DNA of 64,000 nucleotides from Acidimicrobiaceae bacterium (GTDB lineage: Bacteria; Actinomycetota; Acidimicrobiia; Acidimicrobiales; Aldehydirespiratoraceae), in the NCBI GenBank assembly GCA_009844405.1, contig VYBO01000022.1, positions 33,878-97,877 of the forward strand, given 5' to 3'. Positions 7,465-63,231 of this stretch are shown one piece after another. Position numbers and translations under genes: made by a program. The notes under the pieces are model-generated. The model did not search any database, was not told where the DNA came from, and saw nothing but the letters and a program-made list of their open reading frames with translations. Numbering within the stretch: the first letter of the stretch is position 1; the number at the start of each line of letters is the position of its first letter.

Positions 7465-7607
7465 GAGGCCGAGCGGATAGGGAGCGATTGATGAGCATCA
7501 CGAGGCGCGCAGCGAGGCCGTGGCCCGAGCGGCCCGTGAGCGCAGCGAACAAGAGCGGGAATGACGCCGCTGCGACGCGAAGGGCTTCCGCCTACTCGCG
7601 CTCGCTC
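7465..7607 (+). mobile_element. MITE/REP-like element, copy A (long form)
   Basis: Begins GAGGCCGAGCGGATAGG and ends CGCGCTCGCTC. Contains the conserved core GAGGCCGTGGCCCGAGCGGCCCGTGAGCGCAGCGAACAAGAGCGGGA. Flanked by TTG at 7462-7464 and 7608-7610. Confidence 0.7.
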
Positions 7608-12804: not shown

Positions 12805-12918
12805 GCCGATGTGGCCGGGCCCAGTTTCCCGCTCGTGTTCGCTTCGCTCACGGGCCGCTCAGGCCACGGCCTCGCTTGGGCTCGTGCGAAGCTGATCATG
12901 TCAACCCTGCTCGGCCTC
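12805..12918 (-). mobile_element. MITE/REP-like element, copy B (left boundary approximate)
   Basis: Core CCCGCTCGTGTTCGCTTCGCTCACGGGCCGCTCAGGCCACGGCCTCGC. Terminus CTGCTCGGCCTC ends at 12918, directly abutting the permease stop codon. Confidence 0.6.
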
Positions 12919-26991: not shown

Positions 26992-27014
26992 GCCCCCCAG
27001 TCTAGGAGGAGCCC

Positions 27015-27956
27015 CTAGAGCTGCTGTTCGATCTGGTGGAGCACCTCGTAGCAGGGCAGCACCGAGGCCGCGCCGGCGACCGGCTCGCGGTCCTCGGCGA
27101 TGGCCGCGATGAAGTCGCGGTCCTGGAGCTCGATGCCGTTCATCGAGACGTCCACGCCGGACACGTCGACGGGCTCGTCGTCGCCGCTGACGAGATCGTC
27201 GTAGCGGGCGATGTAGGTCCCGGTGTCGCCGATGTAGCGGAAGAACGTGCCGAAGGGCCCGTCGTTGTTGAACGACAGCGCCAGCGTGCACAACTGGCCG
27301 GCCCCGGTCTGCAACTGGATCGACATGTCCATGGCGATGCCGAGTTCGGGGTGGATCGGCCCTTGCACCGCCTGGGCCGCTACGACCGGGCTGCCGGTCT
27401 GGTACTGGAACAGGTCGACGGTGTGGGCGGCGTGGTGCCACAGAAGGTGGTCGGTCCAGCTGCGGGGCTCGCCCAGGGCGTTGGTGTTGGTTCGGCGGAA
27501 GAAGAAGGTCTGCACATCCAGGTGCTGGATCGAGAAGTCACCGGCCTGGATGCGGTTGCGCACCCATTGGTGGCTGGGGTTGAACCGGCGGGTGTGCCCG
27601 CAGGCGGCCACCTTGCCCGAGCGTCGCTGGGCTTCGACGACGGCCCGCCCGTCGGCCAGGTTGTCGCACAGTGGGATCTCGACCTCGACGTGCTTGCCGG
27701 CCTCCAGGCAGGCGATGGCCTGCTCCGCGTGCACGGGTGTGGGCGTCGCCAGGATCACCGCGTCGACGCCGTCGTCGGCCAGCACCGCGTCGAGGTTGGT
27801 CTCGACCCGCTCTATGCCGCGGGACTCCGCAGCCTTGCGGGCTGCAGCCTCGACGGGATCGACGACGGCGACCACATCGGCTCCGGGGATCGACGCCAGC
27901 CCGTCCAGGTGCTTGTTCCCGAAGGCGCCCGCACCGGCCACCGCCACCCTCACCAT
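27015..27956 (-). CDS. Gfo/Idh/MocA oxidoreductase, likely 4-carboxy-2-hydroxymuconate-6-semialdehyde dehydrogenase (LigC-like)
   Basis: MVRVAVAGAGAFGNKHL Rossmann N-terminus, EIPL motif; divergent from ligAB. Confidence 0.75.
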   Translation of the reverse strand: MVRVAVAGAGAFGNKHLDGLASIPGADVVAVVDPVEAAARKAAESRGIERVETNLDAVLADDGVDAVILATPTPVHAEQAIACLEAGKHVEVEIPLCDNLADGRAVVEAQRRSGKVAACGHTRRFNPSHQWVRNRIQAGDFSIQHLDVQTFFFRRTNTNALGEPRSWTDHLLWHHAAHTVDLFQYQTGSPVVAAQAVQGPIHPELGIAMDMSIQLQTGAGQLCTLALSFNNDGPFGTFFRYIGDTGTYIARYDDLVSGDDEPVDVSGVDVSMNGIELQDRDFIAAIAEDREPVAGAASVLPCYEVLHQIEQQL

Positions 27957-28051
27957 CTCGCACCCCTTCCCGTGCTGCCGGGTCCGGCGGGGAGGATTCC
28001 CACAATCCCGCCGAACTCTGGCATCCTCTTCGCGGCGCCCAGCGGGCGTCT

Positions 28052-28077
28052 GCCGAGCAGTATGGCCGAGCAGTATG
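28052..28077 (+). repeat. Perfect 13-bp tandem repeat GCCGAGCAGTATG x2 in the ligC/ligA divergent promoter
   Basis: 28052-28064 and 28065-28077 are identical; 36 nt upstream of the ligA ATG. Confidence 0.9.
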
Positions 28078-28112
28078 TCGGTCCGCCCTACCGGTACCAA
28101 AAGCGGAGCACC

Positions 28113-28520
28113 ATGGCCCTCGACAAGCCCTATCTCGACGTCCCGGGGACCACCGTCTTCGACACCGACCAGGCCGCGAAGGGATACCACCTCAACCAGT
28201 TCGCCATGTCCCTCATGAGGGCCGAGAACCGCGAGCGGTTCAAGGCCGACCCCGACGCCTGTCTCGACGAGTGTCCCATGACCGGCGAGCAGAAGCAGGC
28301 CGTGCGCGACCGCGACTTCAACCGCATGATCGAACTCGGCGGCAACATCTACTTCCTGGCCAAGATCGGCGCGACCGACGGGCTCGACTACGTGCAGATC
28401 GTCAGTTCGATGACCGAGAACGACGCCGACGCCCACACCGAGATGATGCTGAACGGCGGCCGCTCGCCCGACGGCAACCGCTACCTCCACGAGTGGCAGC
28501 ACGAGCGCGAGCGTGACTAG
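28113..28520 (+). CDS. ligA: Protocatechuate 4,5-dioxygenase alpha subunit (LigA family)
   Basis: GYHLNQFAMSLMRAENRERFKAD ... GGNIYFLAKI is a LigA-domain pattern. GGAG lies 6 nt upstream of the ATG. Confidence 0.85.
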   Translation: MALDKPYLDVPGTTVFDTDQAAKGYHLNQFAMSLMRAENRERFKADPDACLDECPMTGEQKQAVRDRDFNRMIELGGNIYFLAKIGATDGLDYVQIVSSMTENDADAHTEMMLNGGRSPDGNRYLHEWQHERERD

Positions 28521-28642
28521 GTGAGAGCCCTACGCTCCGCATCGGTGTGTCACTCCCGCTCTTGTTCGCTTCGCTCACGGGCCGCTCGGGCCACGGCCTC
28601 GCCCGTGCGGGCCCGGGTCGGCCCGCGGTTCCGCTCGGCCTC
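28503..28642 (-). mobile_element. MITE/REP-like element, copy C (long form) in the ligA-ligB spacer
   Basis: GAGCGCGAGCG ... core CCCGCTCTTGTTCGCTTCGCTCACGGGCCGCTCGGGCCACGGCCTCGC ... GGTTCCGCTCGGCCTC. It overlaps the last 6 codons (including the stop) of ligA. Confidence 0.65.
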
Positions 28643-28654
28643 AGGGCGCTGACC

Positions 28655-29515
28655 ATGGCCAGGATCACCGCAAGCGTCTACACCAGCCATGTGCCCGCCA
28701 TAGGCGTGGCCATGGACCTCGGCAGGACGGAGACGCCCTACTACGCGCCGCTGTTCGCCGGATACAGGCCCGCACGCGAGTGGATGGCGGACAACACGCC
28801 CGACGTCGTGGTGCTGGTCTTCAACGACCACGCCAACGCGTTCAGCCTCGAGATGGTGCCCACCTTCGCGCTCGGCATGTCGGCGCGGTACGAGCCCGCC
28901 GACGAGGGCTGGGGCGCCCGGCCGGTGCCTCCCGTCGTCGGGCATCCGGCGCTGTCGGCCCACATAGCGCACTCCGTCATCCGGGAGGACTTCGACCTGA
29001 CGCTGGTCAACGACATGCCTGTCGACCATGGCTGCACGGTGCCCCTGTCGATCATGTTCGGGCAGCCCGACGCGTGGCCGTGTCGCGTCGTGCCGCTGGT
29101 CGTGAACGTGGTGCAGTACCCCGTTCCCTCCGGGCGTCGCTGCCTGGAGCTCGGCAAGGCCATACGCCGGGCCGTCGAGAGATTCGACGAGGACCTGGAC
29201 GTGCAGGTATGGGGCACCGGCGGCATGAGCCACCAGCTCCAGGGGCCGCGGGCCGGCCTCATCAACCAGCCGTGGGACAACCGGTTCCTCGATCGGATGG
29301 TCGACGATCCCGAGGGCCAGGCGGAGGTGGAGCACGTCGAGTACGTGCGCGAGGCGGGATCGGAGGGGATCGAGCTCGTCATGTGGCTGGTGGCCCGGGG
29401 CGCCATGGCCGACCTCGCCGGCGGCGGCGCACCCACCGAGGTCCACCGTCTGTACCACGTGCCCGCCAGCAACACCGCGGTCGGCCAGCTCGTCCTCGAG
29501 GACGCCCCGGCCTGA
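28655..29515 (+). CDS. ligB: Protocatechuate 4,5-dioxygenase beta subunit (LigB, class III extradiol dioxygenase)
   Basis: 286 aa; ARITASVYTSHVPAIG ... FNDHANAF ... VDHGCTVPL ... GTGGMSHQL. Confidence 0.9.
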   Translation: MARITASVYTSHVPAIGVAMDLGRTETPYYAPLFAGYRPAREWMADNTPDVVVLVFNDHANAFSLEMVPTFALGMSARYEPADEGWGARPVPPVVGHPALSAHIAHSVIREDFDLTLVNDMPVDHGCTVPLSIMFGQPDAWPCRVVPLVVNVVQYPVPSGRRCLELGKAIRRAVERFDEDLDVQVWGTGGMSHQLQGPRAGLINQPWDNRFLDRMVDDPEGQAEVEHVEYVREAGSEGIELVMWLVARGAMADLAGGGAPTEVHRLYHVPASNTAVGQLVLEDAPA

Positions 29516-29592
29516 GCGGTCTGCTGACCTCGATGTCGAGAGGTCGTGCCGCTCGGGCACTCCGCCCGCCGGATCGGCCAACCGCTACAGGG

Positions 29593-29700
29593 GGCGGAGG
29601 GATCCAGTCTCATTGTCGTTGCTGGTGGGTGATCCCGGACTGGCTCGCCACCAACACCGACCTTGGCGGAGGGATCCAGTCTCATTGTCGTTGCTGGTGG
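29593..29700. repeat. 36-bp perfect direct repeat x2 separated by a 36-bp spacer
   Basis: GGCGGAGGGATCCAGTCTCATTGTCGTTGCTGGTGG at 29593-29628 and 29665-29700; spacer 29629-29664. Confidence 0.9.
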
Positions 29701-29710
29701 TGCTGAACAG

Positions 29711-29726
29711 GGGCCGTCCACGGCCC
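29711..29726. terminator. GC-rich hairpin GGGCCG-TCCA-CGGCCC (no U-tract)
   Basis: Perfect 6-bp stem. On the minus strand it follows the small ORF that ends at 29735. Confidence 0.3.
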
Positions 29727-29734
29727 ATAAGGGC

Positions 29735-29881
29735 TCAGGCCTCGATTGTTCGCGCGCTCACCCCGAGTGTGCGGGCGGCGTCCATTAGCGCTTCGTTGCG
29801 GTCGGCGGGGGCTAGGCATATCTCGGCGTCGAGGACGCGTGCCGCGGCGATTGCTTCCAGCGACAGCAGGTTCAGCCGCAA
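29735..29881 (-). CDS. Possible 48-aa HTH peptide or gene remnant (TTG start)
   Basis: MRLNLLSLEAIAAARVLDAEICLAPADRNEALMDAARTLGVSARTIEA. The ending LGVSARTI resembles an HTH recognition segment. Below the ORF-track size cutoff. Confidence 0.2.
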   Translation of the reverse strand: MRLNLLSLEAIAAARVLDAEICLAPADRNEALMDAARTLGVSARTIEA

Positions 29882-29926
29882 TCCACCGCCGCCTCAGAGT
29901 TTACGACGGGTGTGAGCCGCTCTGGG

Positions 29927-30655
29927 TTAGATGTTGAGGAGTGGGCCGATCTCCCGGAGGCGGGCGCGCCGTAGTCGGTAGTCGGGCACGGCCTGGGCGA
30001 CCACCCCCCAGTACTCGGGCGTGTGGCCGCGGACGCGCAGGTGCGCCAACTCGTGGGCGATCACGTAGTCGAGAAGGGCGGGCGGGGCCATGACGGCACG
30101 CCAGTTGAAGCGAAGCGTGCCGTCCGGAGCGCAACTCGCCCAGCGGCGGCGCTGATCGCGGATGAGGACAGCCTTCGGCTGCGCGCCGAGAAGGCTCGCA
30201 ATCCGCTCGACACGCGGCGGAAGCTTCTTCGAGGCACGGTCGCGGTACCACGCTTCGAATGCGGCCCGCACCTTCTCGAGCCGTTCCTCGCCTTGGAGAG
30301 AGCGAGGGACGTCAACGTCGAACTCCCAATGGTGGAAACTGACGGCGACTCTGGCGTCGTCGGTGGGGTGCACGGTGAGACGCACCGATCGGCCGAGGTA
30401 GGGAAGGGACTCGCCGCTGACGAACCGGCGAGGCGGTGCGCCCGCCGCGGCCGCGCCGTCTTGGCGGATGATCCAACCGGCGCGGCGGCGCACGGTCTCC
30501 TCGACTTGCTCCGCGGGTGTGTCGACAGGTGCCGCCACCCTGACGACACCGGGCGCATCGACGGTCAGCTCGATCGTCTTGCGCCGCCTCGGGCTGCGGA
30601 CAACCTGGTACTTGATCCGGGCGTCGCCGAAGACGATCTCCCCCCGCTCTGTCAC
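29927..30655 (-). CDS. YgjP-like metal-dependent hydrolase (DUF45/M48-like zinc peptidase)
   Basis: HEXXH in VIAHELAHLRVRGHTPEYW. Overlaps the hsdR stop by 4 nt; this family typically follows hsdR. Confidence 0.85.
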   Translation of the reverse strand: MTERGEIVFGDARIKYQVVRSPRRRKTIELTVDAPGVVRVAAPVDTPAEQVEETVRRRAGWIIRQDGAAAAGAPPRRFVSGESLPYLGRSVRLTVHPTDDARVAVSFHHWEFDVDVPRSLQGEERLEKVRAAFEAWYRDRASKKLPPRVERIASLLGAQPKAVLIRDQRRRWASCAPDGTLRFNWRAVMAPPALLDYVIAHELAHLRVRGHTPEYWGVVAQAVPDYRLRRARLREIGPLLNI

Positions 30656-33600
30656 GCCAGCCTCTTGCGGGCCATCTCCATCACCTGGCGGGCCAGCTCC
30701 TCGACTTCGCCCTCGCCGTAAGGACCGGCACGCAGGCGGCGCTTGATGTCGCGCCGCACCTCGCGCTGGCTCTCGAGGTTCTCGTGCCAGTCGATCAAGG
30801 ACTGGAGCCGTTGAACGATCACCTCGATGTCGAGGGCCATCTCCTTCACCTTGGCGTCGATGTCGGCGGGTTGGAACTCCATGTGCTCCGATGCTGCGGG
30901 TGAGGAGCCGCTGGGGTCGCCTGCCTCAGCGCGTTTGCGGTCCAGCAGGCCGTACACCGCGTAGGACATCGGTGAGAGGCCCTGATCCGCAGCGAAGGCC
31001 TCCTCTTTGGTGACCTGCCCACGCAGCGCGGCCATGCGCTTGCAGCCCTCGGCCGCGTCGATCACCTTGGCCCGCAGCTCTCCGATGATGCGGGCGAGCG
31101 CCTCAGAGAGCCTCTCGTAGAGGGCGGGATTCTCTGCGACCCGCTCGTTGATCTGCGCCCGCAGCGCGTGCTCCATCAGCGAGGCCCGTGCCTCGTCGTG
31201 GGGCAGGCTCTCGATCTTCTGCTCGAAGTCGCGGTCGAGGATGGAGACGGGTGCCATCAGCCATCGGACGCCGGCGTCGATGCGGGTGTCGATCAGATGC
31301 TTGACCTTCGCGCCGACGGCGGTCCAGTCGATGTCGGCCCGCTCCCGCAGGAACTGGGCTCGCGCGTAGGACCGGATGACGGTGAGGCGGCGCAGACGGT
31401 CGAGATAGACGAGCGCCGCCGGGTCGGGCAGGTAACGGTCCATCAGCTTCGAGAAGTCGCCGTATTCGCGGTCGAACCGTTCATAGGCGTCAGCCTTGTA
31501 GTCACCCTCGGTGGCCGCGTCCGCGGCAAACTGGCTCACACATGACCACGGGTCGTCGAGGTCGCGACCGCGGAAGTGGGCTTCGGCGCGGTCGGCGGCA
31601 GCCTGAATCACGGGACCCGGATCCTCCAGCTCGGAGAGCGCCTGCTGGACGTCGCCGTCCTCAAAGACGGCGAGGGCGTCCTCAAGCTCGCGTGACACGC
31701 CGTGGTAGTCGACCACGAGCCCGTGGTGCTTCTCCGTCACGACGCCGTTCCTACGGTGCGAGAATCGGCGGTTCACACGGGCGATGGCTTGCAGCAGCGT
31801 GTGTTCCCGGATGGAGCGGTCGAGGTAGAGGACCTGCTCGACGGGCGCGTCGAAACCCGTGATGAGCTTGTCGACCACCACCAGGATCTGCGGCTCGCCG
31901 TCGGGGTCGATGAAGTCCTCGACGATCTTGTCTTGGTCGAGCTCCCTGGCTCGGGCGAACTCGGGGCCGTCGTTGTGGGAGGTGGTGATGATCGGGTAGG
32001 CGGACAGAGCGAAGTCGTTGAGATGCCGCTCGTAGCTCAGCGCGGCGGCGCGGCTCGCGGTTACGACCTGGGCCTTGAAGCCGTTCGGCTGGACCTTCTT
32101 GGCGAAGTGCTCGGAGATGTCGAGCGCGATCTGCTCAATGCGCTTGGCTGCCTCCGCGATGCGCTCCTTGCTGGCGAAGCGTCGCCGGATCTCGGTGCGC
32201 GTCGCTTCGGGTTCGTCGCCGAAGAGCGCCTCGAACAGCCGGTCGAGCGTCTGCGGGCCTTCGATGTGCAGGTCGGGGAGCCGGGCCTCGTAGTAGATGG
32301 GGACCGTAGTGCGGTCCTCGACGGACTGCGGGATGGTGTAGGAGTCGATCAGGTCGCCGAACACTCCCAGTGTCGTCCGCCGGAAGCCCTTGTCGATGGG
32401 GGTGCCGGTGAAGCCGACGAAGGTGGCCTGCGGCATAGCCGCTCGCATCTTCGCGGCGAGGCGCCCGTACTGCGTGCGGTGGGCCTCGTCGACCATCACG
32501 ATGACGTTGTCGGCGTCGTTGAGCCAGGTGCGTGCGCCGGCGGGAGCGTTCAGCACGTCCTCGAACTTCTGGATGGTGGTCATGATGGTGCGGCCGTTGT
32601 TGGTCTGGAGCAGCTCGCGGAGGCGCCGGGTGGTATTGGCCCGCTCGGGCACGTCGACCGCGGACTGCTGGAAGGTCCTGGTGATCTGCCGGTCGAGCTG
32701 GGTGCGGTCGGTGACGGCGACGATGGTGGGGTTGCGCAGGGCGGGCGTGCGCCGCAGCTTCGTGGCCAGCCACAGCATCGTCAGCGACTTGCCGGAGCCC
32801 TGAGTGTGCCAGACGACCCCGCCGCGCTCGGCCGGCGTGCGGCCCCGCACGATGCGGTCGAGGGCGCGGGTCACGGCCCGGTACTGCTGGTAGCGAGGCA
32901 GCTTCTTGATGAGCCGTCCCTGTTCGTGCTCGTAGACCACGAAGTCACGCAGGATGTCGAGCAAGACCGTGGGATTGAGCAGGCCGGCGATGAGCCGCGC
33001 CTGACCGTCGGGAGGCGTGCCGAGTCGGTGTTCGAAGTCGCTCTCGGTGAAGGGCTCGATCGACGTCCAGCCGGTGTAGGCGTTCTGAGGCGCGCCGACG
33101 GCTCCGAAGTGGGCGTCGGCGCCGCAGTTGGCGACGCACAGCAGATTGGTGTCGAAGAGCTCGGGAGCGCCCGTGCCGTGCCACTCCGGACCGGCCTCCT
33201 GGTAGCGGTGCAGCTGCTTGACGGCCTGCTCCTTCCAGATCTCCAGCAGCGTCGGCGACTTGGCCTCCATGACCACGAGCGGTATGCCGTTCACGAACAG
33301 CACCAAGTCCGGCTTGACGACCCGCTCGTCGTTCTCGCCGGCGCGCGGTTTGCCGCGCTCGCTGCCACGGCGCACCCGGAACTGCGTGGTGACGACGTAC
33401 TCGTTCAGTCCCACGCCAGGTTCGGGGTGCTCGAAGTCGAAGAAGCGCACGGTGGGCGTCTCCTGGCGGCCACCCCGGTCGACGGTGAGGGGCATGCCGT
33501 GCGACAGGTACTCATGGACGGCCTGGTTGCGGGCCAGGCCGGTGGCATCAATGTGCTGCAGATTGAAGATGACCCGTTGCGCCTGGTCGTCGGTCATCCA

Positions 33601-33693
33601 AGGATTGAGACGCTTGAGAGCCGCTGTGAGCCGACCGGCCAGCAGCACATCCCGCTCGTCGTCGCGCTCCTGTGCCAGCGTCTCCCGCGGCAC
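30652..33693 (-). CDS. hsdR: Type I restriction enzyme R subunit (conserved N-terminus continues upstream to about 33776 without a canonical start)
   Basis: 1013 aa; VVWHTQGSGKSLTM Walker A, VMVDEAHRTQYG DEAH box, QAIARVNR motif VI. Confidence 0.95.
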   Translation of the reverse strand: MPRETLAQERDDERDVLLAGRLTAALKRLNPWMTDDQAQRVIFNLQHIDATGLARNQAVHEYLSHGMPLTVDRGGRQETPTVRFFDFEHPEPGVGLNEYVVTTQFRVRRGSERGKPRAGENDERVVKPDLVLFVNGIPLVVMEAKSPTLLEIWKEQAVKQLHRYQEAGPEWHGTGAPELFDTNLLCVANCGADAHFGAVGAPQNAYTGWTSIEPFTESDFEHRLGTPPDGQARLIAGLLNPTVLLDILRDFVVYEHEQGRLIKKLPRYQQYRAVTRALDRIVRGRTPAERGGVVWHTQGSGKSLTMLWLATKLRRTPALRNPTIVAVTDRTQLDRQITRTFQQSAVDVPERANTTRRLRELLQTNNGRTIMTTIQKFEDVLNAPAGARTWLNDADNVIVMVDEAHRTQYGRLAAKMRAAMPQATFVGFTGTPIDKGFRRTTLGVFGDLIDSYTIPQSVEDRTTVPIYYEARLPDLHIEGPQTLDRLFEALFGDEPEATRTEIRRRFASKERIAEAAKRIEQIALDISEHFAKKVQPNGFKAQVVTASRAAALSYERHLNDFALSAYPIITTSHNDGPEFARARELDQDKIVEDFIDPDGEPQILVVVDKLITGFDAPVEQVLYLDRSIREHTLLQAIARVNRRFSHRRNGVVTEKHHGLVVDYHGVSRELEDALAVFEDGDVQQALSELEDPGPVIQAAADRAEAHFRGRDLDDPWSCVSQFAADAATEGDYKADAYERFDREYGDFSKLMDRYLPDPAALVYLDRLRRLTVIRSYARAQFLRERADIDWTAVGAKVKHLIDTRIDAGVRWLMAPVSILDRDFEQKIESLPHDEARASLMEHALRAQINERVAENPALYERLSEALARIIGELRAKVIDAAEGCKRMAALRGQVTKEEAFAADQGLSPMSYAVYGLLDRKRAEAGDPSGSSPAASEHMEFQPADIDAKVKEMALDIEVIVQRLQSLIDWHENLESQREVRRDIKRRLRAGPYGEGEVEELARQVMEMARKRLA

Positions 33694-33773
33694 ATACGAC
33701 CAGCCGAGCCGCTCCAGCAGTTCGAGGGCAGGCTTCTCGGCCAGGTTGAACTCGTCAAGCCTTGCGGTCCCAG

Positions 33774-34157
33774 CTATGGCTGTTCCTCCTCCAAGAGCCG
33801 CTTGGCCTGCACCAGCAAGTCGGGAAGGTCGGTCTGAATGATGTCCCAGATCACATCGTCATCGAGTCCCAGGTAGGCGTGCGCCAATCGATTCCGGGTT
33901 GCGATCACCTGTCGCCACTTGATCTGAGGATTCGCCTCGCGAACCTCGTTAGGAACATGAGTCGCGGCCTCTCCGATGAGTTGGAGGTTTCTCAGCGTGG
34001 CATCGTATGTGCGCCCGTCGGACGTGAAGGCGTCCTGTTCAAAGCCATCGGTGTACCTGACGACTCGCAGGGCGAAATCAATCATGTCCTGAATGTAGAG
34101 CCTCCAGTGACGAGCCTTCTCGCGAGCGTCAGACATCGATGGCCTCTCGCTCAACAT
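33774..34157 (-). CDS. hepT: HepT (DUF86, HEPN RNase) type VII toxin
   Basis: Rx4HxY HEPN motif in ATRNRLAHAYLGLD; 127 aa; overlaps the MNT gene. Confidence 0.85.
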   Translation of the reverse strand: MLSERPSMSDAREKARHWRLYIQDMIDFALRVVRYTDGFEQDAFTSDGRTYDATLRNLQLIGEAATHVPNEVREANPQIKWRQVIATRNRLAHAYLGLDDDVIWDIIQTDLPDLLVQAKRLLEEEQP

Positions 34158-34479
34158 ACGGACGGAGTTCGGCGCGTAGTGCCTTGTCGGTCACAAGGTC
34201 CACACGCCGACCCAGCAAATCCTCGAGATAGAACTGAACCCCAAAGTAGGCCCGAGATGTCGTCGGCCCGTCGAACCGCACGAGAAGGTCAAGATCGCTA
34301 CCGGCGCTCGCCTGATCCCGCGCCACCGAACCGAACAGTGAGATGCTGATGACGCCGAACCGCTCGGCCAGCGTTGCCTTATGCGCCCGCAGTGCTTCTA
34401 GGACTTGATCCCTCCCGAGTTGGTCCACAGGCCTACTTCTTTCGTTGATCCACTCGCACACGTCCCGTGAGTAGCGCAT
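34129..34479 (-). CDS. mntA: MNT minimal nucleotidyltransferase antitoxin
   Basis: SLFGSVARDQASAGSDLDLLV (GSx10DxD). Likely GTG start at 34428, just after the hsdS stop. Confidence 0.85.
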   Translation of the reverse strand: MRYSRDVCEWINERSRPVDQLGRDQVLEALRAHKATLAERFGVISISLFGSVARDQASAGSDLDLLVRFDGPTTSRAYFGVQFYLEDLLGRRVDLVTDKALRAELRPYVEREAIDV

Positions 34480-35759
34480 CCGAAATCGACGTTACGACAG
34501 TCGAAAGAACGGCGCGCTCCTCGCGGGCTCGCTCAATGCTGGCATCCACACTGTCGAGAACCGCAGCGATAGCTGTCTGCTCCTCGGGAGTCGGGAGACC
34601 AAATGTGTACGACGCCACATCATCTGGCCGCACTGCCGGATAAGCCTGTCCAGTTGTTGCCTTCTCGAGGTGGCTAGCGAAGGGAGCAGACATCACATGT
34701 TGGTAAGCGTATGAGCCACTGACACCCTGCCACGCCGAGAGTACAGCGAAACCCGACGACGCGATCAGGTTCGCTGGTGCCTCCCTAATGCGGGCGAAGC
34801 CCCGAAGGTTGGGACGAACAGTGCTGACTAGGATGTCCCCGCTCGCTACTCGTCGTCTCGCTCGGCTAGGTGCCCTGTCCGAATTGATCTCGCGAGCACC
34901 GAGACCGTGGAGGACTCCGTCAGCATGGAGACGCTCGGCTAGGTGCCCTGTCCGAATTGATCTCGCGAGGCTCGGCGACCTCACCCGGAGCGACGACTGC
35001 CGTCAAGTCAAGGTAGCGGATGGTCTCCGATTCACTCCCAAGTGACCACGAACATGGATTAATGCCGCACACATCCCCCAAGCGTACGGCCTGCCAGGAA
35101 GCGGGGATGGTGCCCACGCCGGGCACTTCCTTCCACTCTGAGTGCTGGCCGGGGAGACCTCGGGTCAGGAGTTCGTGAAGAAGGGCGTCACGGAGACGCT
35201 CGGTAGCTGCGATGACTTCGTCCGCGCTCTCGATTGCCTCGTCAATCGAGTCCAACACCGCAGCGATAGCTGTCTGCTCAGCCAGAGGCGGAAGTGCCAC
35301 CGGCAGAGACGAGTACTCGGTAGCGTTGATATTCGGCTGAGCACCTGCACGCAACATTGAGGCGACCCATCTGCGGTAGAACTGTCCGCGGGTCCAGAGT
35401 TCTAGGAATCTCGGGACGGCAGCGTTGCTCCGCGCCCTGAACCGAATCAGGTATCCCGCATACACACATGGGCCGTCCTCCGGTCGATAGAGATACGACC
35501 TGCCTACACTCCCACTCCTAGCGAAGAGCAGGTCGCCTGCTTGGAGTTCATAGCCTTCGACCCTCTCGGGATCGGCCGAACGAGCGTCAGTTCGACGAAG
35601 GTGGCCGTCATCCGTGATATCGGTGATGCGAACGTAACGAGGCTGGTTCGGGTCGAACGGTTGCGCCGGCGCGCCAGCACCGTACCGGGGAACGTCACAC
35701 ACCTTGCCGAGGCGGGCAATACGCCAGCCCTCGGGGACTTGGGTAGCGTCGATTCTCAA
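34433..35759 (-). pseudogene. hsdS: Type I specificity subunit HsdS (two target-recognition domains, TRDs), frameshifted by a 73-bp duplication in TRD2
   Basis: N-part (ORF 34920..35888, TTG start at 35759) and C-part (ORF 34433..34984) both carry the conserved region EQTAIAAVLDS(I/V)D. Both contain REINSDRAPSRA. Removing 73 bp gives a 417-aa ORF. Confidence 0.85.
34859..34969. repeat. 38-bp perfect direct repeat at 73-bp period inside hsdS
   Basis: CGCTCGGCTAGGTGCCCTGTCCGAATTGATCTCGCGAG at 34859-34896 and 34932-34969. Confidence 0.95.
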
Positions 35760-36260
35760 CTCGTGTAGGCGGGCTCGGGGAACCCGCGGACGGCTTCGGG
35801 TACCCGGACCTCGATCTCTACGAACTCGAACCGTGTAGCGACTGGTGGCACGTCGTCCCCGTGCTCCAGATACGACTCCATGATCCAATCCTCAATCGGC
35901 TCGTTGTGGTAGGCGATCGCCTCATCGATGGACATCTTGGGCGCCGGCAGCGGGTCACCGTCCTCCAGCATGCTCTCGATGTGGAACGTTAGAGGCCCCG
36001 CGGATAGGCGGGCGACCCGGCCCATACGGGGCGGGGCCGTGGCCCGAGCGGCCCGTGAGCGAAGCGAACAGGAGCGGAAATGACCACCCCGCGCCGCGAT
36101 CGGCCGCCGATCAATCCGCGCTCGCTCTTAGGGCTTCGTCGATCATCTCGAGCATCTCCTCCCAAGTGTCGCCGACGCTCACGCAGACAGGTGCATCAGG
36201 CACATATGCACACCAGTTGCTGGGGGCCTTCTCGAATACGACCGCGTACGTCAACTTCAT
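35756..36260 (-). pseudogene. HicB-family antitoxin paralogue interrupted by MITE copy D
   Basis: N-fragment MKLTYAVVFEKAPSNWCAYVPDAPVCVSVGDTWEEMLEMIDEAL (36260 down to 36111, stop in the element). C-fragment TFHIESMLEDGDPLPAPKMSIDEAIAYH (ORF 35756..36025). Both are collinear with the neighbouring hicB. Confidence 0.8.
35992..36127 (+). mobile_element. MITE/REP-like element, copy D, inserted in the hicB paralogue
   Basis: GAGGCCCCGCGGATAGGCGG ... core ... CCGCGCTCGCTC; TTA at 35989-35991 and 36128-36130. Deleting 139 bp leaves a 366-nt intact ORF. Confidence 0.85.
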
Positions 36261-36296
36261 TGGAACCGGTCCAGCACAAACGCCGAGCCTCGCAGA

Positions 36297-36668
36297 TCAT
36301 CCCACTTGGGCAGGCTCGGGGATCCCCCGGACGGCTTCAGGCACCCGAACCTCGATTTCGACGGGCTCGATCCGTGTCGCCAGAGTGGGCGGCTGATCGC
36401 TGAAGTCCAGTCCGAAGTCGCTGAGGTCACAGTCGTCGCCGATGAAGTCCAGATGGTAGGTTAGGGCCTCTTCGATAGACATCTTCGGTGCCGGGATCGG
36501 CTCCCCGAATTCCAGCATGACCTCTATATGGCCGGTCAGGGCCTCGTTGATCATCTCCAGCATGTGGTCCCATGTGCCGCCGACACTCACGCAGCCAGGC
36601 ACATCGGGCACATATGCGTCCCAGCCGTTGGCATCCCGGCAGAACACGACGATGTACTTCAGCTTCAT
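36297..36668 (-). CDS. hicB: HicB-family antitoxin
   Basis: 123 aa; MKLKYIVVFCRDANGWDAYVPDVPGCVSVGGTWDHMLEMINEAL is a typical HicB N-terminal domain; directly downstream of hicA. Confidence 0.85.
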   Translation of the reverse strand: MKLKYIVVFCRDANGWDAYVPDVPGCVSVGGTWDHMLEMINEALTGHIEVMLEFGEPIPAPKMSIEEALTYHLDFIGDDCDLSDFGLDFSDQPPTLATRIEPVEIEVRVPEAVRGIPEPAQVG

Positions 36669-36687
36669 GATCTCTTCCTTCTTGATC

Positions 36688-36862
36688 TCATCTCAAGCCC
36701 GCTTGCCGCAGGATACCTTTCCAAGTCTTCTCTGGCAGTTCCTTGCCGAGCGGGCCTGGAATCGTCACTGTGCCCGGCTTCACGGGATGCCGGAACTGGC
36801 GGTGGCTGCCACGCGTGCGGACATGGAACCAGCCGTCGCGCTCGACGGTGCGGATCGCCTCT

Positions 36863-36879
<17 letters not shown>
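36688..36879 (-). CDS. hicA: HicA mRNA-interferase toxin
   Basis: 63 aa; GWFHVRTRGSHRQFRHP core typical of HicA. The start overlaps the hsdM 3' end by 17 nt. Confidence 0.9.
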
Positions 36880-38401
<1,522 letters not shown>

Positions 38402-38403
38402 GG

Positions 38404-38991
38404 CTAACTCCTTTCGCGACCTGTCGTCGCGATGTCGGCAATCACAGAGTCCCGAACTATGTCGTGTCGGATCCGCACGGCTTCGAGCGCGGCGCGGCGC
38501 GATGCCGCCGCCGCCTCGGCCAAGTCTGCTATGCGCGGCAGCTCCGGTGCCGGTGGCACGACGACAGGCACCTCGCCCAGCGCCCCGGCCGACAGCGACG
38601 GCAGCGACGTCGCCGTGAATCGGGCGGCGACCTCGGCCCGCCCGAGGGTCGAGGTCAGGTAGTACCAGAGGTAGTGCGCCAGGCCCATGCCAGGATCAGG
38701 TGTCCTCACGACCAGGAGCGTCACCGCTGCGACGGTGCGGTGAACGCCCGGCGGCACCAGCGCCACCTTCGCCGCCCGCGCACGAGCCGCGACAACAAGG
38801 TCGAAGGGTTCCAGCAGATGAGCCGCCGTCCTGACGCCCTGTCTCAACCCAACCTCGCGCAACTCCCGCATAGACAGTTGATCGTCGAGAATGTCGGCGC
38901 TGTCGACAACGCGAACTCGCCAGTCGCCCCGCTGGGCCCCGGCGCCGCGACCAGCCATCGCCAGCCCTTGACGAACATCAGCGATCTCCAT
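38404..38991 (-). CDS. Half-size (single-TRD) HsdS-like specificity protein
   Basis: 195 aa from ATG 38991; LEPFDLVVAAR ... LLVVRTPDP ... AHYLWYYLTS ... LSAGALGEVPVVVPPAPELPRIADL is the TRD plus conserved-helix pattern. The stop lies 3 nt before the hsdM start. Confidence 0.7.
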   Translation of the reverse strand: MEIADVRQGLAMAGRGAGAQRGDWRVRVVDSADILDDQLSMRELREVGLRQGVRTAAHLLEPFDLVVAARARAAKVALVPPGVHRTVAAVTLLVVRTPDPGMGLAHYLWYYLTSTLGRAEVAARFTATSLPSLSAGALGEVPVVVPPAPELPRIADLAEAAAASRRAALEAVRIRHDIVRDSVIADIATTGRERS

Positions 38992-39095
38992 GAGGCGAGT
39001 CACTGTAGGTACTGTAGCCGTGGTAGGGTATTTTCTCAACACTTGCTCGTGTAGTTGCCTCGGACACCCTTGTATCGCCACCGGAAGGCAGAGCG

Positions 39096-39323
39096 ATGAT
39101 TTCAGAAGCGATAACCGGACGCCGTGTAGGCCGCAACACCGCGATCCAGGCATGTGGCGCGCAAGCCACCGCCACGGCGGCTTCTCCAGGCGAGGCTCTG
39201 GAGCCCTGCCAGCGAGCGATCCTGTCGGTTCTGAGCCTGTGGCCACGCGGCACCGATAAAGCCGCGGTCGCTCACCGCGCCGGCCTCGATGCCACAACCG
39301 CCGCTGCGCAAAGGCAACCCTAG
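39096..39323 (+). CDS. Hypothetical 75-aa protein, possibly winged-helix
   Basis: Only the ORF and a weak pattern (CQRAILSVLSLWPRGTDKAAVAHRAGLD) support it; sits in the lower-GC spacer next to the tRNA. Confidence 0.2.
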   Translation: MISEAITGRRVGRNTAIQACGAQATATAASPGEALEPCQRAILSVLSLWPRGTDKAAVAHRAGLDATTAAAQRQP

Positions 39324-39383
39324 CGGCCCATGACCGGCCCAGAGGCGATCCGAGTGTGGGACATATGGTTGGACAATAGCCGC

Positions 39384-39418
39384 AAGCCTGAGCAAGAAAT
39401 AGCGTCTGAAGCAGGCTT
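39384..39418. terminator. Hairpin AAGCCTG-N21-CAGGCTT followed by TTT, just downstream of the tRNA-Leu 3' end
   Basis: 7-bp perfect stem; T-run on the plus strand, A-run on the minus strand. Confidence 0.3.
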
Positions 39419-39432
39419 TTGATGATGATCCA

Positions 39433-39519
39433 TGGTGCCCGGAGAGGGATTCGAACCCTCACACCCTTGCGGGCGGCGGATTTTGAGTCCGCTGCGTCTG
39501 CCAGTTCCGCCATCCGGGC
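39433..39519 (-). tRNA. tRNA-Leu (anticodon CAA), class II with long variable arm, encoded CCA
   Basis: GCCCGGATGGCGGAACTGGCAGACGCAGCGGACTCAAAATCCGCCGCCCGCAAGGGTGTGAGGGTTCGAATCCCTCTCCGGGCACCA. Acceptor GCCCGGA/TCCGGGC, anticodon loop CTCAAAA, T-arm GAGGG-TTCGAAT-CCCTC. Confidence 0.95.
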
Positions 39520-54375: not shown

Positions 54376-54504
54376 GAGTGCGAGCCGGTCGCGGCGCAGC
54401 GATGTCTCTCCCGCTCTTGTTCGCTGCGCTCACGGGCCGCTCGGGCCACGGCCTCGCTCGGCTCCCTGCGATACTCATGAGTCGCTCCGTGCCCGCTCGG
54501 CCTC
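54376..54504 (-). mobile_element. MITE/REP-like element, copy F (long form)
   Basis: GAGTGCGAGCC ... core CCCGCTCTTGTTCGCTGCGCTCACGGGCCGCTCGGGCCACGGCCTCGC ... GCCCGCTCGGCCTC. It overlaps the last 9 codons and the stop of the MerR gene 54475..55266. Confidence 0.65.
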
Positions 54505-56153: not shown

Positions 56154-56243
56154 CCTGGGCTCGAGCGGCCCGTGAGCGGAGCGAACAGGAGCGGGAGACC
56201 TGGGCTCGAGCGGCCCGTGAGCGGAGCGAACAGGAGCGGGAGA
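56154..56243 (+). repeat. Perfect 45-bp tandem duplication of the MITE core (copy G)
   Basis: CCTGGGCTCGAGCGGCCCGTGAGCGGAGCGAACAGGAGCGGGAGA at 56154-56198 and 56199-56243. Confidence 0.9.
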
Positions 56244-57597: not shown

Positions 57598-57930
57598 GTG
57601 GATGGCGCACACAGAGAGTCGGATCTGCTTGACGGTGATCCTGGCGGCGGACCTGTCGAGCGAGACCCGTGCGCCTGTTGGGACGGGAGGACCTTCGACA
57701 CCGACATCGAAGAGGCGTTCGCCCAGCCGGACACCGCAGGTGGCGACACCGCCACTAGCGTCGACTGGCAGACCGTGGGCATATCCGGCCCGCTCACCGA
57801 AATCTCGTGCTTCCTCGGAGGCAGCGTCGAAGCCGACGACCGCCGGGCCTGGGAGCGAGACCCGCTATCGGATTGCCGCCGCTGGTTCGCCGATGCCGGG
57901 CAGGCAGCCAGCCTGGACCGTTGCCGGCGC
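57598..57930 (+). CDS. Hypothetical acidic protein; C-terminus unclear
   Basis: High-GC3 frame with plausible composition (CWDGRTFDTDIEEAFAQP...VDWQTVGISGPLTEISCFLGGSVEADD). The antisense frame shares the wobble position but is Ser/Pro/Arg junk. No in-frame stop until 58257. Confidence 0.3.
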
Positions 57931-58035
57931 CAGTCACACGTCCATGCGGACGATGAAGTCGGCCACCCAGACGGTGCAGATCGGCACCGAGTCGGAGGGC
58001 GCCAGTCACACTCCATGCGGACGATGAAGTCGGCC
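57926..58035. repeat. 38/39-bp direct repeat at 72-bp period
   Basis: GGCGCCAGTCACACGTCCATGCGGACGATGAAGTCGGCC (57926-57964) and the same minus one G (57998-58035). Confidence 0.9.
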
Positions 58036-63161: not shown

Positions 63162-63231
63162 GCCCGCGTCTCCCGCTCCTGTTCGCTGCGCTCACGGGCC
63201 GCTCGGGCCACGGCCTCGCAAGCTCGGCCTC
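63162..63231 (-). mobile_element. MITE/REP-like element, copy H (short form)
   Basis: GTCTCCCGCTCCTGTTCGCTGCGCTCACGGGCCGCTCGGGCCACGGCCTCGCAAGCTCGGCCTC fills the gap between two convergent stop codons. Confidence 0.55.

Follow-up and report, generated by a model that had tools for sequence, protein, structure and literature searches.

Background

This report concerns a ten-gene operon in a 64-kb stretch of contig VYBO01000022.1 from an Acidimicrobiaceae bacterium (the window; all coordinates are window positions). The operon encodes a Type I restriction-modification (R-M) system and holds two toxin-antitoxin (TA) cassettes, a hicA-hicB cassette between hsdM and hsdS and an mnt-hepT cassette between hsdS and hsdR. 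It is read here, from comparison of sequences and with moderate confidence, as a horizontally mobile Type I R-M operon that has two cargo slots flanking hsdS, with cassettes that are exchanged by recombination and are probably co-expressed with the hsd genes. A first-pass annotation of the window had presented the arrangement as not previously described. In kind it is not new, as the nesting of TA and other defence genes in Type I R-M operons is already documented by PrrC, by DarTG2 and by a census of embedded genes. A search of open-access text found no paper that describes HicAB or MNT-HepT within Type I operons in particular.

The DarTG2 TA pair is situated between hsdS and hsdR in the RptR-regulated RRDM island of enteropathogenic Escherichia coli (EPEC). 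The island is expressed from a promoter upstream of it, the site has been proposed as a hot spot of defence-cargo recombination, and defence was shown experimentally (PMC12255303). The present locus is similar in that hsdS and hsdR enclose a complete TA pair in operon orientation. It differs in that the DarTG2 toxin is a DNA ADP-ribosyltransferase and not an RNase, and the EPEC island has one cassette and not two. A gene for an RptR-like regulator is not seen in the present locus, where a half-length hsdS gene (half-S) holds the first position.

PrrC, in the Type IC system EcoprrI, is likewise the product of a HEPN-family RNase gene found between hsd genes. However, PrrC is a single ABC-ATPase-HEPN protein that has no antitoxin, is silenced by the R-M complex and is triggered by the T4 Stp peptide. 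The toxins of the present locus are small, have their own antitoxins and show no sensor domain in profile searches. A general association of HEPN proteins with R-M systems has been described (PMC3710099). According to a census by Payne et al. (bioRxiv 10.1101/2024.01.29.577857), 17,432 genes are embedded in BREX, DISARM or Type I RM systems, and HEC-08, with a DUF3644-HEPN domain, was shown to defend. HicA and MNT are not mentioned in the passages of that text that were searched. The pattern of this "guilt-by-embedding" census resembles the present one: variable genes are nested between core defence genes. The MNT of the window belongs to the PADLOC candidate family PDC-S09, and DUF3644-HEPN genes are found in the equivalent position of related operons (slot B, below).

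The cassettes themselves resemble known TA systems. The mnt-hepT pair has the same domains, mnt-then-hepT order, gene overlap and catalytic motifs as the type VII MntA-HepT system of Shewanella, SO_3165/SO_3166 (PMC4621449). The hic genes have the hicA-then-hicB order and the HicA GSH motif of type II HicAB systems. Unlike in typical HicAB, each hicA is accompanied by two to three hicB genes and Pfam detects no DNA-binding domain in HicB, and unlike stand-alone MntA-HepT and HicAB systems both pairs are embedded in a larger operon.

Organization of the operon

The minus-strand gene order 3' of tRNA-Leu(CAA) is half-hsdS, hsdM, hicA, hicB1, hicB2, hsdS, mnt, hepT, hsdR and ygjP. The ten genes occupy 9.07 kb with intergenic gaps of no more than 36 nt, and five of the junctions overlap. 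The features are as follows.

39433-39519, minus strand: tRNA-Leu(CAA) (ARAGORN; Rfam tRNA, 57 bits)
38992-39432, minus strand: non-coding leader from the tRNA to the operon, unshared with related operons; likely promoter region
38404-38991, minus strand: half-hsdS, 195 aa, with one target recognition domain (TRD) and one long helix
36863-38401, minus strand: hsdM, 512 aa, intact (Pfam N6_Mtase 6e-94, HsdM_N 2e-22)
36688-36879, minus strand: hicA RNase toxin gene, 63 aa (Pfam HicA_toxin 3e-19; GSH motif)
36297-36668, minus strand: hicB1 antitoxin gene, 123 aa (Pfam HicB_lk_antitox 1e-12)
35756-36260, minus strand: hicB2, split (the rejoined 121-aa protein matches HicB_lk_antitox, 1e-13)
35990-36128, minus strand: insertion of 139 nt in hicB2, similar to a miniature inverted-repeat transposable element (MITE) (DNA alignment; empty site in sister contigs)
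34433-35759, minus strand: hsdS with two TRDs, frameshifted, TTG start at 35759 (Methylase_S on both fragments)
34859-34969, minus strand: insertion footprint in hsdS, a 38-nt direct repeat around a 35-nt filler
34129-34428, minus strand: mnt, MntA-like nucleotidyltransferase antitoxin gene, 99 aa, GTG start at 34428 (Pfam NTP_transf_2 1e-14; PADLOC PDC-S09 1.5e-27)
33774-34136, minus strand: hepT, HEPN RNase toxin gene, 120 aa, ATG start at 34136 (Pfam HepT-like 1e-28)
30652-33777, minus strand: hsdR (open frame counted from GTG, 30652-33693; SWI2_SNF2 2e-76, HSDR_N 3e-28, TIGR00348 6e-151)
29927-30655, minus strand: ygjP-like (DUF45) metallopeptidase gene, GTG start (Pfam YgjP-like 2e-54; HELAH, an HExxH motif)
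27006-39434, no strand: strain-variable chromosomal segment with genes for an oxidoreductase, LigA and LigB, a VapC-like remnant and the operon of 9.07 kb

Throughout the operon, start and stop codons overlap or come close to touching. The half-S stop is separated from the hsdM ATG by 2 nt, and the start of hicA overlaps the 3' end of hsdM by 17 nt, an overlap that is the same in relatives. A 19-nt gap separates hicA and hicB1. The hicB2 stop and the hsdS start share TTGA, a 4-nt overlap; 4 nt lie between the hsdS stop and the mnt GTG at 34428, and the mnt stop is overlapped for 8 nt by the hepT start (ATGTCTGA). The hepT start is the ATG at 34136 and not that at 34157, and in relatives the second ATG is preceded by stop codons. 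Finally, the hsdR stop and the ygjP start share GTGA, also a 4-nt overlap. Profile searches and junction analysis thus agree with the gene order and seamless junctions of the first-pass annotation. Its junction distances are correct to within 1 nt: the 17-nt overlap, TTGA, GTGA and the position of the hepT stop in the hsdR frame are exact, while the half-S/hsdM distance is 2 and not 3 nt and the hsdS/mnt distance 4 and not 5 nt. Because of these overlapping and nearly abutting codons, the ten genes most likely form one transcript with translational coupling. The transcript would begin 3' of tRNA-Leu.

The hsd gene identities proposed earlier hold by profile, although the frameshift in hsdS and the lack of a canonical start in hsdR had been missed. 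The HsdM translation has the NPPF and DPTAGSAG (S-adenosylmethionine-binding) motifs. HsdR has the domains HSDR_N, SWI2_SNF2, ResIII, T1R_D3 and a T1RH C-terminal domain, with a TIGR00348 score of 504 bits against a cutoff of 285, and the motifs D...EAK and DEAH can be read from its translation. MNT displays the GSx10DxD motif (GSVARDQASAGSDLDL) and HepT has RNRLAHAY, which represents the Rx4H motif followed by Tyr. The NCBIfam scores for MntA and HepT, 42.5 and 45.2 bits, are below the equivalog cutoff of 60 (MntA, 4.7e-11). These matches point to the same superfamily as the characterised MntA and HepT proteins, in another subfamily. The Pfam match of HicB1 spans only residues 10-68 of 123, with no match to a ribbon-helix-helix or helix-turn-helix domain. 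Protein identity between hicB2 and hicB1 is 61%.

The region of hicA through hepT coincides exactly with a dip in GC content, 0.58-0.64 over 33.5-36.9 kb versus 0.66-0.70 in the flanks. A less GC-rich segment had been noted before at 34.1-36.9 kb. The window sequence is identical to contig VXVY01000032.1 (GCA_009836165.1). The closest hsdM relatives are from metagenome-assembled genomes (MAGs) of Acidimicrobiales, including "Ca. Poriferisodalis" and "Ca. Aldehydirespirator"; an association with sponges is only suggested, by the names of these relatives.

Two cargo slots around hsdS

Window proteins were compared with related loci by tblastn, and an ORF-based slot census was made of 74 loci (L-numbers are labels of the related loci and contigs compared). 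Slot A is the interval from hsdM to hsdS and slot B that from hsdS to hsdR; the close set is made up of the 44 loci in which HsdM identity is 69% or more. In the proposed family order, half-S and hsdM come first, then slot A, hsdS and slot B, and finally hsdR and ygjP; in the window slot A is taken by hicA-hicB-hicB and slot B by mnt-hepT.

Each slot is filled in 35 of the 44 close loci. Slot A has hic genes in 11 and slot B has MNT/HepT in 11, and six loci have both. Other slot A cargo consists of DUF4160/DUF2442 pairs (17 of the 44) and Phd with or without PIN (seven). Other slot B cargo comprises PIN pairs, CAP12/Pycsar-type TIR genes (seven loci), DUF6414, DUF3644 (HEPN), ATPases and nucleases. 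At least eight cargo families recur across the slots. Locus L005, with an HsdM 94% identical to that of the window, is cargo-free. In 30 distant operons (HsdM 55-60% identical) neither hic nor mnt-hepT cargo was detected, and 13 of these have other slot B cargo.

The positions of the cassettes are conserved as well. A hicA that overlaps the hsdM end and is followed by one to three hicB genes is found in 14 loci (L001-L004, L006, L007, L014, L015, L017, L037, L038, L081, L082, L089), and the same pattern is also present in the TARA contig L101. The mnt-hepT pair is directly before hsdR in 14 loci (L002-L004, L007, L008, L022, L024, L039, L040, L043, L081, L082, L085, L089). The same gene order is displayed by the Acidimicrobiia loci L002, L003, L004, L007, L081, L082, L089 and L101 and partly by the Chloroflexota loci L014, L015, L017, L037 and L040. 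The linkage of TA cassettes and hsd genes that had been proposed from one locus is therefore seen across genomes, where hicAB and mnt-hepT are conserved with hsd in the same order and not randomly co-located. The ygjP gene is conserved across the family, as 60 of 62 related loci have it after hsdR in the same orientation; a search of the literature for a link between YgjP/DUF45 and Type I R-M systems gave nothing useful.

Reverse comparisons were made with the toxins. Among metagenome relatives of HepT, L081, L082 and L089 (at least 70% identity, with usable flanks) and L085 (53%) are in the operon, and L086 (54%) and L088 (38%) are outside it. Of five sampled HicA relatives one (75% identity) is in the operon and four (67-73%) belong to hicAB pairs that stand alone, surrounded by metabolic genes or carried by an integrative element, and that have only one, shorter HicB apiece. 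The HicA and HepT results indicate that the cassettes are captured generic mobile TA modules and not families dedicated to R-M.

Several further properties of the family were observed. Operon-embedded hic cassettes consist of one hicA and two to three tandem, diverged hicB genes that are about 55-65% identical to one another (window 35756-36668, L002 11723-12892, L004, L006, L007, L081, L082, L101). The embedded HicB proteins have a conserved C-terminal tail, T-R-I/F-E-x-V-E-I-E-V-R-V-P-E-A-V-R-G, and the stand-alone HicB proteins are shorter (70-114 aa). Loci L040 (6391-7683), L081 and L082 have an extra gene of 425-430 aa (cluster c10) between hsdS and mnt, which matches no window protein. 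The backbone of half-S, hsdM, hsdR and ygjP is common to Acidimicrobiia and many Chloroflexota MAGs (L008-L045, HsdM 73-88%), the latter from Dehalococcoidia, Tepidiformaceae, SAR202 and Caldilineaceae. The operon is common to uncultured members of the two groups at 75-88% HsdM identity. Such identities are far closer than the relationship of the phyla themselves and imply that the backbone was recently transferred between phyla, apparently by uncultured bacteria that live together.

Variable core and conserved backbone

The relation of backbone to core is best seen in three close relatives, for which protein identities to the window are as follows.

L002: hsdM 96%, hsdR 94%, ygjP 96%, hicA 67%, hicB 56-84%, hsdS 56%, mnt 91%, hepT 89%
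L003: hsdM 95%, hsdR 89%, ygjP 90%, hicA 76%, hicB 65%, hsdS 34%, mnt 81%, hepT 78%
L004: hsdM 94%, hsdR 89%, ygjP 88%, hicA 75%, hicB 57-66%, hsdS 40%, mnt 75%, hepT 79%

Within the same pairs the backbone is thus much better conserved than the cargo. Backbone dS values (synonymous substitutions per site) are 0.13-0.32 versus 0.27-1.8 for mnt, hicA, hicB and half-S. The ratio of nonsynonymous to synonymous rates (dN/dS), calculated for the genes other than hepT, is 0.08-0.31 in every gene measured, with 0.13-0.18 for hsdM and 0.09-0.31 for the cassette genes. These ratios indicate that all genes measured are under purifying selection.

Shuffling of the core is found even at a single chromosomal site, where the hsdS alleles have TRDs a-b (window), g-b (L094) and g-a (L093, with a in second position). 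In L094 a diverged mnt (83%) and hepT (72%) lie inside a backbone that is otherwise 99-100% identical. The conserved backbone together with the shuffling of TRDs and cassettes fits a process in which homologous recombination, with hsdM and hsdR as its anchors, exchanges the low-GC core. By this mechanism the core from hicA to hepT would be swapped along with the hsdS TRDs.

Chromosomal site and operon boundaries

Homology to 80 hsdM-related loci of other genomes is confined to positions ~29,920 to ~39,000, with the upstream edge at ~38970-39002. No flank synteny with the hsdM-related loci was found. The exact edges and the lack of flank synteny indicate that the 9.07-kb operon moves as a unit. 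No close relative is located beside tRNA-Leu(CAA), thus the operon is not tied to that tRNA.

The tRNA is nevertheless a boundary of another kind. Contig L099, from the same species, has the same fabD (97.7% nucleotide identity) and tRNA-Leu, diverges exactly at the 3' end of the tRNA (position 39435) and has 5.5 kb of unrelated genes before homology resumes at 27005. This alternative content (L099 1962-7501) consists of genes for an F420H2-dependent quinone reductase, GntR/PBP, PNP_UDP and an ABC transporter. The break at the tRNA 3' end shows that the tRNA is a genuine boundary of the strain-variable segment 27006-39434, in agreement with the earlier statement that the island ends at the 3' side of tRNA-Leu(CAA). 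As had also been stated, no integrase or recombinase is present, at least by Pfam match among the called genes, and no att-like direct repeat matching the 3' end of the tRNA was found between 27 and 41 kb. By these comparisons the tRNA-Leu site is a replacement hot spot with no visible integrase. An Rfam scan of 28.4-40 kb yielded only the tRNA, and no riboswitch or small RNA. In the Chloroflexota locus L022 a tRNA-Leu(GAG) (9821-9906) is found ~95 nt upstream of hsdM at the usual position of half-S, a second, independent case of the operon adjoining a tRNA-Leu.

The half-S gene

The first gene of the operon has no match in Pfam or NCBIfam. In PADLOC, 41 Specificity_I models match it over one half (best 4e-9), and it aligns to TRD1 and the central helix of the local hsdS with 25% identity (E 7e-5). 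A profile of 40 half-S homologues compared with the PDB retrieves the HsdS of Thermoanaerobacter tengcongensis (3e-6) and Esub1 (7e-6). The AlphaFold2 model (mean per-residue confidence, pLDDT, 82.8) displays a beta-rich head and a 45-residue helix (residues 148-193). With Foldseek the best match to this model is Esub1, with a template modelling (TM) score of 0.71-0.74, and full S subunits are next.

Esub1 of Streptococcus pyogenes (PDB 8VSQ/8VSR) has, like half-S, one TRD and one long helix. It has been described as a homodimeric "half of an S subunit" that is encoded away from hsd genes and for which HsdM binding is unconvincing (PMC11754733). Half-S, on the other hand, is located 2 nt upstream of hsdM, and its identity to Esub1 is only 19%. 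In architecture half-S can also be likened to truncated half-HsdS subunits that dimerise. It is likely that half-S dimerises and would give HsdM and HsdR a second, palindromic specificity, a proposal that comes from its modelled fold and its position.

The first-pass annotation counted the extra half-S gene as part of an arrangement that it did not recognise. The gene is not peculiar to this locus but a conserved member of the operon family: half-S precedes hsdM in 33 of 79 related loci, and databases contain 213 homologues of 184-212 aa, of which those that are named are hypothetical proteins. The dS of half-S is 1.1-1.5, a faster rate than that of hsdM, with a dN/dS of 0.12-0.18.

The start codon of hsdR

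The hsdR frame has no ATG, GTG or TTG before the GTG at 33693, which is 28 codons downstream of the homologous start. At the homologous position is an ATA (33777-33775) that overlaps the hepT stop TAG (33776-33774). The conserved HsdR N-terminus (LDEFNLAEKPALELLERLGW) is encoded upstream of the GTG at 33693; in relatives this N-terminus reads M-T-(S/T)-x-A-K-L-N-E-L. A Shine-Dalgarno-like run, GGAGGAGG, is just upstream of the ATA. Gene callers choose a truncated (1013 aa) or an over-extended (1065 aa) HsdR.

The ATA is phylogenetically conserved. It is found at the hsdR start in every Acidimicrobiia locus that has hepT upstream (the window, L002, L003, L004, L081, L082, L094) and forms ATAG or ATAA with the hepT stop in these loci, and the adjacent hepT alleles are only 72-89% identical. 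The cassette-free L005 has an ATG start (...GCAGCCATGACC...), and in those Chloroflexota loci where hepT lies upstream the hsdR start reads ATGA or GTGA. Loci with the ATA start keep intact hsdR genes of 1,04x codons. The hsdR dN/dS is 0.16-0.20 overall and 0.09-0.24 over the 24 codons upstream of the GTG at 33693.

The missing canonical start is probably not inactivating, as it is conserved within the clade. We infer that HsdR is still made, with initiation at or near the AUA, and the route would be either Shine-Dalgarno-directed near-cognate initiation or termination-reinitiation after HepT. An AUA start would hold HsdR output low and tie it to translation of the cassette.

Lesions in the window copy

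Two genes of this copy are interrupted. The hsdS frame is broken by a net gain of 73 nt, which consists of a unique 35-nt filler and a duplicated 38-mer (34859-34896 and 34932-34969), and the result is two ORFs of 322 and 183 aa. Deletion of the 73 nt restores a 417-aa HsdS with two TRDs (Methylase_S 3e-18). Intact hsdS is present in the sister contigs L093, L094, L097 and L098, and is 416-418 aa at the same site in L093 and L094. Those sister contigs that have the b TRD (L094, L097, L098) have a single 38-mer and no filler. The second interrupted gene is hicB2, recognised earlier as a disrupted hicB copy; the cause is the 139-nt insertion, a dispersed repeat whose terminal inverted repeats are imperfect and which has a target duplication of TA/CTA. 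L093, L094 and L098 have the empty site, GACGAAGCCCTA|ACGTTC, where alignment gives a 139-column gap and hicB2 alleles of 121 aa are intact, as predicted for an uninterrupted gene.

The exact HsdM protein is present on 22 contigs. Contigs from other samples keep the same chromosomal flanks, and some are 0-2 substitutions from the window outside the variable part. The intact alleles at the same site in sister contigs show that the hsdS and hicB2 lesions are recent polymorphisms and not assembly errors. L097 shows that the MITE-like insertion in hicB2 predates the hsdS insertion. Any R-M activity that remains in this copy would have to depend on the half-S gene.

The insertion in hicB2 belongs to a MITE-like family with a core of ~50 nt (TCCCGCTCTTGTTCGCTTCGCTCACGGGCCGCTCGGGCCACGGCC) that is present in six copies in the 64 kb versus zero expected, most of them intergenic. 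The core copies are located as follows.

7516-7549
12838-12871
28565-28598
36035-36068
54420-54453
63182-63215

Terminal inverted repeats are common to the copies at 35990-36128 and near 7516. Related copies are found in L002, from another Acidimicrobiales genome, and beside ygjP in L082.

The window has three repeat-filler-repeat footprints (34859-34969, 57927-58035 and 29593-29700), with repeats of 36-39 nt, fillers of 33-36 nt and periods of 71-73 nt. The footprint in hsdS is a genuine new insertion because sister contigs have the empty site. An intergenic footprint represents a 72-nt tandem unit that varies in copy number, with three copies in L093. The fillers match neither the window nor IMG/VR, and this includes the 35-nt hsdS filler, a source for which was sought in both. 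The geometry of the 73-nt hsdS insertion resembles a CRISPR repeat-spacer unit, and ectopic Cas1-Cas2 integration is one unproven idea for its origin; a CRISPR array was not found in the window, which was not screened for cas genes. A templated insertion of the non-homologous end joining type is another idea for the footprints. There are also two perfect tandem duplications, at 8526-8603 (39 nt, two copies) and 56154-56243 (45 nt, two copies), the second inside a MITE-like copy. Just downstream of ygjP, a minus-strand frame at 29740-29880 translates as ...LNLLSLEAIAAARVLDAEICLAPADRNEALMDAARTLGVSARTIEA and resembles what would be left of a PIN/VapC toxin gene at its C-terminal end.

Function of the cassettes and alternative interpretations

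Under the preferred reading, self-contained TA modules would have been captured from a mobile TA pool and would not be R-M-specific proteins. The benefit would probably be of two kinds: the toxins would act at the RNA level as a second, abortive layer, moved and regulated together with restriction, and the cassettes would stabilise, in the manner of addiction modules, a Type I locus that lacks addictive properties of its own.

A first alternative, which the first-pass annotation had put forward from the example of PrrC in EcoprrI, is that HicA and/or HepT are guards held by, or monitoring, the HsdMSR complex and are released by a phage anti-restriction protein. Such coupling would fit the positions between hsd genes, which are kept across several species, the overlap of the hepT stop with the hsdR start and of hicA with the hsdM end, and the proposal that R-M-linked HEPN clades act in this way (PMC3710099); the two to three hicB genes per hicA also hint at unusual regulation. 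However, each toxin has its own cognate antitoxin, and an ABC-ATPase or other sensor domain is absent in profile searches. The same slots take unrelated cargo (DUF4160/DUF2442, Phd-PIN, TIR, DUF3644) and are empty in L005, whose HsdM is 94% identical. The mnt-hepT allele has been exchanged for one 72-83% identical with HsdM and HsdR unchanged, and four of the five HicA relatives, at 67-73% identity, are in stand-alone contexts. Guard-type coupling is thus unlikely. Chance co-location of independent genes in a defence island is more improbable still. Defence genes do cluster generally, and no integrase or att repeat marks the locus as a single unit, but the same order and overlapping junctions recur in at least eight loci of different species and two phyla, and cross-genome homology starts and stops exactly at the operon edges.

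Interchangeable cargo could also mean that the cassettes are selfish hitch-hikers, which exploit a recombination hot spot at hsdS and persist by addiction with no role in defence or R-M. Cargo turnover is fast and cargo is often absent, the cassettes are of generic mobile TA families and are swapped along with the TRDs, and TA pairs are known to stabilise islands (PMC8978831). On the other hand, the slot cargo other than TA pairs is enriched in known defence domains (CAP12/Pycsar TIR, DUF3644-HEPN, ATPase-nuclease genes), the insertions are seamless and all in operon orientation instead of random, and the cassette genes are under purifying selection (dN/dS 0.09-0.31). Selfish carriage keeps some weight as a less probable interpretation. 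Much the same weight is given to decay, by which the operon would be a fossil in this genome and the arrangement would have no current function. The 73-nt frameshift in hsdS, the MITE-like element that splits hicB2, the non-canonical hsdR start and the VapC-like remnant just downstream all suggest degeneration. Yet both lesions are recent and polymorphic, with intact alleles at the same site and flanks that differ by 0-2 nt. The remaining genes are full length and under purifying selection, the ATA start is common to at least six other loci with intact hsdR, and half-S is intact and could still supply specificity.

Several points weigh against the cargo-operon interpretation itself. TA modules usually regulate themselves through promoters of their own, and internal promoters in coding sequence are possible, e.g., at the hsdM 3' end ahead of hicA. 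A promoter and terminator scan of 29.5-39.8 kb, untuned for high-GC Actinobacteria, gave two promoter-like and four terminator-like sites, not above shuffled sequences; one sigma-70-like match in the leader (39039-39011) is likewise not above shuffles. In the bacteria that have been studied AUA supports initiation only very weakly, and the argument for its use in hsdR is solely one of conservation. The ATA may travel with a swapped cassette, and part of the hsdR divergence behind the dN/dS values may predate the ATA. In addition, hsdS is frameshifted in this copy and the composite system may not operate as a whole.

A stronger form of the cargo-operon model can be drawn, although it seems doubtful. 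HsdR would be made only by ribosomes that finish HepT and reinitiate on the AUA, so that HsdR dose would be slaved to the cassette, and the toxins and surplus HicB would respond to the state of the R-M system. The locus would then be a two-toxin, interlocked R-M and abortive-infection machine in which half-S provides a fixed palindromic specificity beside a shuffling full S subunit.

Significance

The operon is a natural example of Type I R-M operons that carry other defence genes, with two fixed slots and seamless insertions. Comparison within the population reveals exchanged cassettes, shuffled TRDs and newly arisen insertions that inactivate genes, all at one chromosomal site. Of greater interest are the residual properties, i.e., the clade-conserved hsdR AUA, the surplus hicB genes, the unannotated half-S family and the unexplained 73-nt insertion. 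The locus offers handles on the co-regulation of TA systems with restriction, on the setting of HsdR dosage and on the role of the half-S family. Current views of such operons are not overturned by these findings; they are extended to uncultured Acidimicrobiia and Chloroflexota.

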